The notes beneath the pieces were generated by a model that saw only the letters and a list, made by a program, of their open reading frames with translations, did no database searches and was not told the DNA's origin. Below, one piece after another: positions 24,575 to 27,972 of a DNA stretch of 64,000 nucleotides. The stretch spans positions 332,754,001-332,818,000 of the forward strand of contig OZ024742.1 in the NCBI GenBank assembly GCA_964016885.1. The letters are read 5' to 3'. The translations under genes and the position numbers were made by a program. The stretch is from Eledone cirrhosa. Lineage: Eukaryota. Numbering within the stretch: the stretch's first letter is position 1; every line of letters starts with the position of its first letter.

Positions 24575-25140
24575 ATATAAAGGACGTAAAATAAGAAAAT
24601 ATTTTTTTAAAAAAATTTAAAAAAAATTTTTTTCTTACTTAAATTTTCACTCCAACTAATTAGTTTCTGCAATGGGATAAAGACAGTTACGTAATCCAAC
24701 TGTCGAGAATTCATTGCGTCATCAGGAAGTCTATTCTCAGTTAAGTCTCCAGGCAATGCGCGGACACTGGCGGCTCATATAAAAATAATAATAATTCGGT
24801 AGATCGAACAGCTTGCGAGGACTGGATTCTATGTACCGAAATTCTCACTGCTTCAAGTCAAATGGCCGATTCTAAAGAATCAATCACGTGACACAGAGGC
24901 TAGTTAGAAGGAATGGGATGGTAAGATGACTGACGCCTACTAACACCCCCAAAAAAATTTTTTTAGAAGTGGTTTTGACAAGTTTGCTCGACAAATCAGT
25001 GATTTGGAGATAAATATAGATAATTTAATATATCAACTAACATAAGCGCACAGATGCACGCCCATGCCAGCAAATACACAGGTTATGTCATAGTACCTAG
25101 GTGGTTCAATGCAGGAGAATGCAGAACAATAATATAAAGG
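24575..25140 (-). mobile_element. Single inverted, circularly permuted copy of the 557-bp HHR unit (557 + 9 nt redundancy)
   Basis: Starts and ends with ATATAAAGG; reverse complement of the array unit; HHR at 24637-24746 (minus). Confidence 0.92.
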
Positions 25141-27972
25141 CGTGCATCTGTGCGCTTATGTTAGTTGATATATTAAATTATCTATATTTATCTCCAAATC
25201 ACTGATTTGTCGAGCAAACTTGTCAAAACCACTTCTAAAAAAATTTTTTTTGGGGTGTTAGTAGGCGTCAGTCATCTTACCATCCCATTCCTTCTAACTA
25301 GCCTCTGTGTCACGTGATTGATTCTTTAGAATCGGCCATTTGACTTGAAGCAGTGAGAATTTCGGTACATAGAATCCAGTCCTCGCAAGCTGTTCGATCT
25401 ACCGAATTATTATTATTTTTATATGAGCCGCCAGTGTCCGCGCATTGCCTGGAGACTTAACTGAGAATAGACTTCCTGATGACGCAATGAATTCTCGACA
25501 GTTGGATTACGTAACTGTCTTTATCCCATTGCAGAAACTAATTAGTTGGAGTGAAAATTTAAGTAAGAAAAAAATTTTTTTTAAATTTTTTTAAAAAAAT
25601 ATTTTCTTATTTTACGTCCTTTATATTATTGTTCTGCATTCTCCTGCATTGAACCACCTAGGTACTATGACATAACCTGTGTATTTGCTGGCATGGGCGT
25701 GCATCTGTGCGCTTATGTTAGTTGATATATTAAATTATCTATATTTATCTCCAAATCACTGATTTGTCGAGCAAACTTGTCAAAACCACTTCTAAAAAAA
25801 TTTTTTTTGGGGTGTTAGTAGGCGTCAGTCATCTTACCATCCCATTCCTTCTAACTAGCCTCTGTGTCACGTGATTGATTCTTTAGAATCGGCCATTTGA
25901 CTTGAAGCAGTGAGAATTTCGGTACATAGAATCCAGTCCTCGCAAGCTGTTCGATCTACCGAATTATTATTATTTTTATATGAGCCGCCAGTGTCCGCGC
26001 ATTGCCTGGAGACTTAACTGAGAATAGACTTCCTGATGACGCAATGAATTCTCGACAGTTGGATTACGTAACTGTCTTTATCTCATTGCAGAAACTAATT
26101 AGTTGGAGTGAAAATTTAAGTAAGAAAAAAATTTTTTTTAAATTTTTTTAAAAAAATATTTTCTTATTTTACGTCCTTTATATTATTGTTCTGCATTCTC
26201 CTGCATTGAACCACCTAGGTACTATGACATAACCTGTGTATTTGCTGGCATGGGCGTGCATCTGTGCGCTTATGTTAGTTGATATATTAAATTATCTATA
26301 TTTATCTCCAAATCACTGATTTGTCGAGCAAACTTGTCAAAACCACTTCTAAAAAAATTTTTTTTGGGGTGTTAGTAGGCGTCAGTCATCTTACCATCCC
26401 ATTCCTTCTAACTAGCCTCTGTGTCACGTGATTGATTCTTTAGAATCGGCCATTTGACTTGAAGCAGTGAGAATTTCGGTACATAGAATCCAGTCCTCGC
26501 AAGCTGTTCGATCTACCGAATTATTATTATTTTTATATGAGCCGCCAGTGTCCGCGCATTGCCTGGAGACTTAACTGAGAATAGACTTCCTGATGACGCA
26601 ATGAATTCTCGACAGTTGGATTACGTAACTGTCTTTATCCCATTGCAGAAACTAATTAGTTGGAGTGAAAATTTAAGTAAGAAAAAAATTTTTTTTAAAT
26701 TTTTTTAAAAAAATATTTTCTTATTTTACGTCCTTTATATTATTGTTCTGCATTCTCCTGCATTGAACCACCTAGGTACTATGACATAACCTGTGTATTT
26801 GCTGGCATGGGCGTGCATCTGTGCGCTTATGTTAGTTGATATATTAAATTATCTATATTTATCTCCAAATCACTGATTTGTCGAGCAAACTTGTCAAAAC
26901 TACTTCTAAAAAAATTTTTTTTGGGGTGTTAGTAGGCGTCAGTCATCTTACCATCCCATTCCTTCTAACTAGCCTCTGTGTCACGTGATTGATTCTTTAG
27001 AATCGGCCATTTGACTTGAAGCAGTGAGAATTTCGGTACATAGAATCCAGTCCTCGCAAGCTGTTCGATCTACCGAATTATTATTATTTTTATATGAGCC
27101 GCCAGTGTCCGCGCATTGCCTGGAGACTTAACTGAGAATAGACTTCCTGATGACGCAATGAATTCTCGACAGTTGGATTACGTAACTGTCTTTATCCCAT
27201 TGCAGAAACTAATTAGTTGGAGTGAAAATTTAAGTAAGAAAAAAATTTTTTTTAAATTTTTTTAAAAAAATATTTTCTTATTTTACGTCCTTTATATTAT
27301 TGTTCTGCATTCTCCTGCATTGAACCACCTAGGTACTATGACATAACCTGTGTATTTGCTGGCATGGGCGTGCATCTGTGCGCTTATGTTAGTTGATATA
27401 TTAAATTATCTATATTTATCTCCAAATCACTGATTTGTCGAGCAAACTTGTCAAAACCACTTCTAAAAAAATTTTTTTTGGGGTGTTAGTAGGCGTCAGT
27501 CATCTTACCATCCCATTCCTTCTAACTAGCCTCTGTGTCACGTGATTGATTCTTTAGAATCGGCCATTTGACTTGAAGCAGTGAGAATTTCGGTACATAG
27601 AATCCAGTCCTCGCAAGCTGTTCGATCTACCGAATTATTATTATTTTTATATGAGCCGCCAGTGTCCGCGCATTGCCTGGAGACTTAACTGAGAATAGAC
27701 TTCCTGATGACGCAATGAATTCTCGACAGTTGGATTACGTAACTGTCTTTATCCCATTGCAGAAACTAATTAGTTGGAGTGAAAATTTAAGTAAGAAAAA
27801 AATTTTTTTAAAATTTTTTTAAAAAAATATTTTCTTATTTTACGTCCTTTATATTATTGTTCTGCATTCTCCTGCATTGAACCACCTAGGTACTATGACA
27901 TAACCTGTGTATTTGCTGGCATGGGCGTGCATCTGTGCGCGTATGTTAGTTGATATATTAAATTATCTATAT
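25139..27972 (+). mobile_element. Tandem array of ~5.1 near-identical 557-bp non-coding HHR-bearing units (retrozyme-like / non-autonomous PLE-type)
   Basis: CGTGCATCTGTGCGC occurs at 25141, 25698, 26255, 26812, 27369 and 27926 (period 557); only a handful of single-base differences; no long ORF. Confidence 0.92.
25455..25564 (+). ncRNA. Type I hammerhead ribozyme (repeated at +557: 26012, 26569, 27126, 27683)
   Basis: ACTTC-CTGATGA-C GCAATG..GACAGTT/AACTGTC..CATTGC A-GAAA-CTAATTAG-TT-GGAGT, distal stem ACTTAA/TTAAGT; predicted cleavage after 25547. Confidence 0.82.

Follow-up and report, generated by a model that had tools for sequence, protein, structure and literature searches.

Animal non-LTR (long terminal repeat) retrozymes are described, in the accessible text of PMC7229834 and of a recent preprint (Li, Clavereau & Pollet 2026, 10.64898/2026.07.22.740005), as dispersed arrays of non-coding tandem units with one type I hammerhead each and a GC content under 50%, in genomes that also contain Penelope-like elements (PLEs). 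Their copying from a circular template by a reverse transcriptase (RT) is proposed there. A 64,000-nt stretch of the Eledone cirrhosa genome (GCA_964016885.1, contig OZ024742.1, positions 332,754,001 to 332,818,000, forward strand; hereafter the window) contains an array of 557-bp units with the same organization, base composition, dispersal and accompanying PLEs. The unit is longer than the 150-450 bp given in PMC7229834 and within the 51-972 bp of the preprint, and its hammerhead core is a PLE-like variant, unlike those of the animal non-LTR retrozymes described in these texts. Two-armed insertions with fixed ends, as found here, are not described in them: the word 'inverted' occurs 0 times in the main text of PMC7229834 and once in the preprint, in a reference title. 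The preprint argues for a PLE origin of animal retrozymes and, in its accessible part, does not treat ends, priming or hairpins. According to the accessible text of a 2020 review (PMC7761336), the repeats of animal retrozymes have no conserved motif pointing to a helper; in contrast to that statement, the present retrozyme carries a hairpin that points to a likely one. The element adds a new member to the animal non-LTR retrozymes, for which the class, the circle idea, the tail and the link to PLEs are already published.

PLEs, whose cycle is called undefined in print (PMC8557442), provide two further comparisons. In Anolis, the Poseidon PLE PAc cuts both strands and extends them, initiates at two internal RT start sites that bound a tail, downstream of the hammerhead, and is predicted to be a dimer (PMC11167929). 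It resembles the present element in these start sites, in its AT-rich targets and in the extension of both strands. It differs in being autonomous, in having a tail of 30-40 nt (118 nt here) and in using no target homology, whereas a UAUAU match is found here. Moreover, the start sites of PAc are not strand-specific in vitro, whereas here, as a genomic pattern, the two DNA ends nearly always differ; circles are not discussed for PAc (PMC11167929). Hydra-clade PLEs (Craig et al. 2021, PMC8557442) share with the retrozyme the (TA)n targets, the hammerheads, the inverted 5'-truncated copy and, often, a tail at only one end, and those of this genome have the same start-site hairpin. They differ in encoding an RT and a GIY-YIG endonuclease, and their pseudo-LTRs (pLTRs) align with the unit only at the hairpin.

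We interpret the array as a young insertion of a protein-free retrozyme, copied by a pair of Hydra-clade RTs from a 557-nt RNA circle into a cut (TA)n tract, and assign this reading a probability of about 0.6. The insertion comprises two arms that meet head-to-head (Table 1). Unit numbering starts (u1) at the base that follows the predicted ribozyme cut, window 25548. In RNA sense, the main arm ends at start site B and the inverted arm at start site A, each continuing into (TA)n; the 118 nt separating the sites constitute the 'tail'. The two flanks match over 92 nt at 96% identity, possibly reflecting a long target duplication; the sequence is a simple repeat, so this is uncertain. The main-arm units differ at 26083, 26901, 27810 and 27941, and the inverted arm has one further substitution, inside a homopolymer. 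Read as a circle, neither strand of the unit contains an ATG-started frame of at least 40 amino acids. Its GC content is 36% and it folds better than 100/100 shuffles (z -4.6). The initial annotation, which described five head-to-tail non-coding units differing by about five single bases and an inverted copy of one unit plus 9 nt, was accurate in each of these respects. It had also presented the inverted copy as a special permuted monomer in a different register. The registers do differ, but the copy is the usual second arm, fixed at its 3' end and variable at its 5' end, and its register is not arbitrary, the outer end being site A as against site B in the main arm. The period limit of Tandem Repeats Finder is 500, below the unit length, so the array is not visible to that program. 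The CACGTG at u321 may be part of an internal promoter.

Table 1. Positions of the insertion, its parts and the neighbouring PLE in the window
Feature	Position	Strand	Remarks
Left flank, (TA)n(GA)n(TA)n	24488..24574		
Inverted arm	24575..25140	-	566 nt, one unit + 9 nt; RNA-sense 5' end u71, 3' end u79
Head-to-head junction of both arms	25139..25140		2-nt overlap
Main arm	25139..27972	+	2,834 nt, 5.09 units of 557 bp; 5' end u149, 3' end u197
Right flank, (TA)n(GA)n(TA)n	27973..28075		
Type I hammerhead, first main-arm copy	25471..25552	+	predicted cut after 25547
Same hammerhead in inverted arm	24649..24730	-	
Perfect 12-nt palindrome over helix III	25536..25547	+	self-complementary
Start site A, TATAT, u75-79	25622..25626	+	predicted single-stranded; used at left end of the insertion
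Bulged hairpin just 3' of site A	25631..25654	+	TTC-stem-loop-stem-TT-GAA
Start site B, TATAT, u193-197	25183..25187	+	used at right end of the insertion (27968-27972)
Bulged hairpin just 3' of site B	25192..25214	+	CTC-stem-loop-stem-TC-GAG; same motif 3' of Hydra-clade PLE ends
E-box-like CACGTG, u321	25311..25316	+	kept in 49/55 units of diverged subfamilies
Broken two-armed Hydra-clade PLE	19560..23431		1.1 kb left of the array, separate from it

Exact matches to a 19-nt piece of the ribozyme core number 12,089 genome-wide (3.0 Gb; controls 0), and those to a 49-nt piece of the youngest subfamily 853 (controls 0). The loci sampled were 38 with top identity, the first 60 by position on contig C1 and 25 picked ones; the first 38 were chosen for high identity and later ones for length, a selection that favours uniform arrays and must be held against our reading of them. 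Subfamilies are 67-99% alike, and all have a unit spacing of 471-571 bp. A (TA)n tract is present on both sides in 49/52 loci. The family forms whole-unit tandems with fixed 3' and variable 5' ends and without LTR framing; primer-binding sites and polypurine tracts were not searched for. It thus has the features of non-LTR retrozymes, namely at least two tandem units, a hammerhead in each, no coding capacity, a GC content under 50% and a dispersed distribution. The inverted 5'-truncated arm, the tail at one end and the microsatellite target are those listed for PLEs in PMC8557442. The single RT and GIY-YIG open reading frame (ORF) between pLTRs that marks an autonomous PLE is absent. We are highly confident that the family is a non-autonomous, PLE-mobilised retrozyme.

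Much of what the initial annotation proposed for the family is borne out. It had suggested a non-LTR retrozyme-like element mobilised in trans by a PLE enzyme, and the units are dispersed in tandem, have PLE-type ends and, in the window, are not attached to an RT frame. The genome search that it recommended for copy numbers and end registers yielded the core matches above and two fixed 3' ends. It had considered that the unit might always be attached to an RT ORF; no PLE frame is joined without a TA tract in 97/98 screened loci, the exception being L121. The term 'RNA replicon' goes beyond these observations: each unit has one ribozyme, with its core on one polarity only, and RNA-to-RNA copying would be conjectural. 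Viroids and viroid-like replicons are small structured circles with a hammerhead that replicate from RNA to RNA, often with ribozymes on both polarities. The present element differs from them in having the ribozyme on one polarity and in spreading via DNA insertion. A search of sequencing runs listed no RNA run, a result that is uninformative as to expression. It returned three DNA-type rows of one sample, possibly that of the assembly itself, with 78-84% of the words and three rows of other organisms with 33-40%; neither was used as evidence.

The 3' ends of the arms are fixed. In RNA sense, young arms end at u79 (A) or u197 (B), two of them at u201, with TATAT continuing into (TA)n, while their 5' ends are scattered and arm lengths range from 0.2 to 11 units (87 arms). 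No arm of the young set uses the TATAT motifs at u179 and u430, one of which lies buried in a stem; an older arm, in L074, has its end near u434. Genome-wide, exact ends number 257 for A and 560 for B (controls 0). The two arms of an insertion combine one A and one B end. This was the case in 20/20 two-armed loci of the identity-picked set and in 24/24 divergent pairs among all exact ends on contig C1 (39 A, 90 B), an outcome with a probability of about 6 in 100 million at even odds per arm. It was also the case in 25/26 automatic calls among the first 60 loci by position; on inspection, the 26th proved to be an A+B pair that had lost internal sequence. A few loci belong to more than one of these sets. 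Four of these 60 loci (L075, L091, L118 and L124) look two-armed and have one or both ends decayed, giving no pair. Against the rule stands one A+A insertion, L159, found among the first 100 of the 257 A ends. A looser end-caller gave 50 A+B, 6 B+B and 1 A+A; its six B+B calls were rejected as pairs under 41 bp apart outside the elements, with false B ends in microsatellites, and the stricter exact-end calls were used instead.

Because both outer ends are RNA 3' ends, both DNA ends appear to have primed inward, and we consider priming from both DNA ends very probable. Neptune-type PLE families also end at two sites, with one of each wherever both arms are seen; therefore, the A+B rule looks general to the PLEs of this genome. 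At L160, the whole two-armed insertion is repeated 2 kb apart with the same junction, representing either a local duplication or an assembly duplicate.

The nature of the template was addressed in a variant survey of 53 young loci, comprising 87 arms and 236 units, with homopolymers and two A/U hairpins masked. Among variants covered by at least three units, 22 were fixed in all units, 32 were confined to a single unit and 2 were partial. Alleles 521A and 484C were each fixed in 10 loci and never mixed (0/52 and 0/51 loci, respectively). Locus-private alleles extended through both arms (L159 and L169). Another ten loci, picked for odd spacing or length, had haplotypes fixed at several sites, also where these comprised indels; L206 and L202 each had one difference confined to a single unit. 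Within-array differences of young arrays amounted to 32 of 106,349 compared bases. The cut site was copied through exactly in 255/256 unit junctions, and 0/87 5' ends fell within 3 nt of it. Given the fixed haplotypes and the exact read-through of the cut, each array therefore looks like simultaneous copies of one monomer. Rolling-circle reverse transcription would give array-wide fixed variants directly and fits these data; a monomer circle is probably the template. The private alleles that cross the inversion agree with the earlier proposal that both arms arose in one event, and with one RNA genotype as their source, as do the fixed haplotypes and the read-through with a circular or multimeric template. 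Two other routes were rejected: L1-style twin priming that stops at the second primer, as both arms often exceed one unit, and template jumping between linear monomers as the main route, in view of the exact junctions and the lack of mixed arrays.

Alternatively, the template could be an uncut linear multimer transcript, with arrays homogenised and regrown by unequal crossing-over or gene conversion and no circle involved. We consider this unlikely, although several observations favour it over a monomer circle. Uncut RNA is the main substrate of the Poseidon enzyme (PMC11167929), and Li et al., in the accessible part of their preprint, favour local tandem amplification. L160 has a whole insertion in two copies, possibly by local duplication. 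An already uniform parent array would also pass its alleles on. Finally, 218C occurs in the third unit of both arms of L036, 457A occurs in 3/14 units of L039, and a longer A-run occurs in alternate units of L034, variants that fit a multimer template or later conversion. However, stepwise duplication predicts many partly shared variants, and the two partial ones compare with 22 fixed and 32 single ones. The private alleles run through both inverted arms, no junction was common to two separate loci among those compared, and 16/19 single arms start in TA and not in the flank of a parent. The structure of the ribozyme is conserved, and if active it would cleave the multimer. Without a circle, separate regrowth and homogenisation would be needed that left no partial variants behind.

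The hammerhead is encoded once per unit: CTGATGA cores occur at 25476, 26033, 26590, 27147 and 27704 on the plus strand and at 24725 on the minus strand, and further cuts are predicted every 557 bp, after 26104, 26661, 27218 and 27775. The architecture comprises stem I (5 bp), CUGAUGA plus one C, stem II (6 bp, topped by an upper helix), one additional A, GAAA and helix III. The core is a variant, with the extra C following A9 and the extra A preceding G12. Dimer-active PLE hammerheads are marked, in the accessible text of PMC4209133, by an extra base between 9 and 10.1, a G10.1-C11.1 pair, a long helix II and a palindromic helix III. The extra A falls outside the marks given there; it is invariant in 17/17 aligned copies, a conservation without independent support because these copies were picked by a pattern containing that A. 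Two copies of the palindrome can pair as a 10-bp duplex (-9.0 kcal/mol), and helix III of the monomer adds no computed energy. By the dimer logic set out in the accessible text of PMC4209133, the window hammerhead is therefore likely to cleave as a dimer. Across 17 diverged copies, 95.7% of the pairs are kept and 48 double changes occur, compared with 82.6% and 18 in shuffles, counts that are inflated by kinship and accompanied by two of five measures that did not exceed shuffles. None of 500 shuffles matched the pairing of the 17 copies, slid controls gave 34-49%, and stem II position 2 takes four different pairs. Judged from this pattern, the ribozyme fold looks selected.

Other results qualify or weigh against the proposed reading. 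The core is non-canonical. A search with hammerhead models had been proposed in the initial annotation; Rfam finds no hammerhead in the window at the gathering or the E-value level; the latter returned four chance matches, none of them a hammerhead, and no other ribozyme type. The isolated ribozyme stretch is not more stable than shuffles (z -1.2). According to the accessible text of the respective sources, in vitro cleavage was seen for only 1/9 retrozyme dimers from Xenopus (Li et al. preprint), and the hammerheads of PLEs cleave slowly (PMC4209133). Cleavage, transcript and circle of the 557-nt unit are predictions. In line with the complete type I hammerhead first described for each unit, a core and stems I-III are present in 6/6 copies, together with the covariation; the core itself is of the variant type.

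Arm 5' ends cluster at u535-538 and u484-487 (window 25525-25528 and 25474-25477), with 8/87 and 6/87 ends against 0.6 expected for each. The clusters border ribozyme stem II and the core and probably mark places where the RT pauses or where ends are joined. Other PLE-type families contribute additional hammerhead-like cores to the window, at 8897(-), 16981(+), 23553(+), 48395(+) and 61563(-), and several families in the genome have a mismatch at the base of hammerhead stem II.

To identify the helper, we compared the start sites of the retrozyme with those of PLEs. A hairpin descriptor has exactly two matches in the unit, u85 next to site A and u202 next to site B, both on the 3' side, compared with 0.13 matches per unit in shuffles. 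The hairpin lies 4-8 nt after both start sites. Using a relaxed upper-stem rule, it was found 3' of 6/7 Hydra-clade sites and 0/5 sites of other families (two Neptune-type, two other PLE families and a second retrozyme); the descriptor was already fixed when three of the Hydra sites were first examined. Between subfamilies, the loops of the hairpin vary and its stems are conserved. In addition, the context of retrozyme site B (TATAT, 4 nt, CTCCAA) nearly repeats that of site B in the L069 family. The frames of the candidate helper families L069, L072 and L124 contain RWR, DKT and CNCRDRSKC or CNCPARSIC motifs. Hydra-clade PLEs are marked by RWK-like, DKT and CxCX5C motifs and a C-terminal endonuclease (PMC8557442), and by motifs alone the three families would belong to this clade. 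Two of the Hydra families are young, are present in many nearly identical copies whose open frames span about 740-790 amino acids, and end at two sites, and the L124 family forms two-armed tandem arrays of its own, with 3,531-bp units. The hairpin common to the retrozyme and Hydra-clade ends therefore points to the likely helper, and this shared motif makes a Hydra-clade enzyme the probable one. The broken Hydra-clade PLE near the array has an RT piece at 21960-22748 (-) and hammerheads at 19659 (-) and 23240 (+); one of its arms ends short and the other has a tail and the hairpin. It is a relative of the likely helper.

This assignment must be set against several points. The descriptor was shaped on the retrozyme and on Hydra A-site examples, all five negative sites are A-type only, and, in the folded whole circle, hairpin B is predicted only weakly (0.14 for its outer pairs and about 0.4 for the inner ones). 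The searches found no autonomous element whose pLTR can be aligned, and a closer Hydra subfamily, sought with a gapped pattern, gave no match. The earlier statement that the unit matches none of the neighbouring pLTRs is correct as to alignment, the region from the ribozyme to B scoring no higher than z 2.3 against 12 other PLE-type ends, but the start-site hairpin is common to the unit and Hydra-clade PLEs.

If a Neptune-type or other PLE were the helper, the hairpin would be a leftover of ancestry. This appears improbable. In its favour, (TA)n targeting and two end sites are also found in the Neptune-type families of this genome, and the array at L121 runs without TA directly into a Neptune-type 3' end, as a template switch would give, which also speaks against a Hydra-clade enzyme. 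However, L121 is 1/98 loci and fits insertion into the end of an older element with a small deletion, as in L034. Moreover, Neptune A sites lack the hairpin, whose stems are conserved across subfamilies that are 67-99% alike. At L121 (L121:3615-7130), the inverted arm of the Neptune-type element lies upstream, and the junction represents either a template switch or a nested insertion with deletion.

Taken together, we propose the following mechanism. The tandem array would first be transcribed. Neighbouring hammerheads, whose activity is predicted, would pair via the palindrome of helix III and release a monomer for closure by a host ligase, as in known retrozymes. The enzyme, predicted to act as a pair, would dock at the two bulged hairpins and cut (TA)n, and the free 3' DNA ends would pair with UAUAU just 5' of each hairpin; the fixed ends, the hairpins and the TA targets are the observed basis of this priming step. 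One DNA end would take site A and the other site B, the pattern observed in the genome. Each polymerase would then roll for 0.2-11 turns and stop at variable places, in keeping with the observed arm lengths, and the two cDNA ends would be joined through short overlaps to yield head-to-head arms. Rolling-circle copying has been proposed earlier for PLEs and retrozymes (PMC7229834, accessible text). We advance a more general model only tentatively, at somewhat less than even odds: an enzyme pair on two hairpins of one RNA circle, with each active site primed by one end of the break and both polymerases rolling, would account in one mechanism for why PLE insertions are tandem, inverted and tailed on one side, and the ~20-nt clade-specific hairpin would be the signal with which an animal retrozyme borrows the enzyme of a particular PLE clade. 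The Poseidon system argues against parts of this scheme, not only in its preference for uncut RNA: its start sites are the same for both strands, and target homology is not needed (PMC11167929).

Three further explanations were considered. It is very improbable that the unit is an ordinary pLTR of an unsampled autonomous PLE and the arrays its by-products. The inverted arm, one-sided tail and TA targeting are typical of PLEs, and the RT-frame screen covered 98 loci among thousands, but PLE frames near arrays are set off by TA tracts except at L121, units join head-to-tail without an ORF remnant, and the unit spacing is confined to the same 100-bp range in all subfamilies. Inversion by self-priming on an antisense template, proposed for rotifer PLEs in the accessible text of PMC3846280, is scarcely credible: head-to-head junctions are the rule and that of L065 is symmetric, but almost every junction is asymmetric (71/149, 278/486 and 443/64, for example), and the fixed sites of the two outer ends differ. 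An assembly artefact, conceivable for near-identical tandem units read from the assembly alone, has a negligible likelihood, as the window units carry their own single changes and dozens of loci follow the same rules with locus-specific haplotypes and unit counts.

Additional elements were observed in the genome. The second retrozyme family has a 310-bp unit and two inverted arms with different fixed ends (L034:8100-9470; L192:245-950). It shares two 16-17-nt motifs with the end of a PLE-type family at L045:3303, and the two may form a separate helper pair. The flanks of L031, L036, L044, L054, L062, L064 and L067 are TA tracts of imperfect periodicity, interrupted in the same way to the left and right of the insertion, arising from either repeated target duplication or telomerase-like stutter. 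A young autonomous Hydra-type PLE with 784-aa open frames occurs at L194-L195 (G000:C1:437198000-437214400) and L196-L199, in arrays of 4.5 near-identical 3,531-bp units plus an inverted arm. The 3,531-bp unit contains no CTGANGA hammerhead core, and Rfam yielded nothing useful on the L124-family pLTR. A PLE array at L197 has at its 5' end a satellite with a 55-bp period, composed of internal PLE sequence and reaching from G000:C1:91489170 to where the stretch ends. The window also holds two Neptune-type PLE copies, one at 41480-44920, two-armed with one tailed end, and one at 48452-51910, with an RT and GIY-YIG open frame of >740 aa that is followed by 1.5 kb free of any hammerhead core. Positions 1-8245 are a 31-bp minisatellite of ~266 copies with a strong strand skew.

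The element is real, known in kind and unusually informative on mechanism. In the openly accessible literature, supplements aside, no paper was found with counts of A+B pairing, array-wide fixed haplotypes or a Hydra-clade start hairpin. The family provides counted genomic evidence on the enzyme that moves retrozymes and on the tandem, inverted and tailed insertions of PLEs. It also offers a small test system: an RNA of 557 nt with two mapped start sites and two short hairpins amenable to mutation, a (TA)n target and, in the same genome, candidate helper frames that are still open. If a circle and two hairpins suffice, the family would give a sketch of how cargo RNA could be written into microsatellites.

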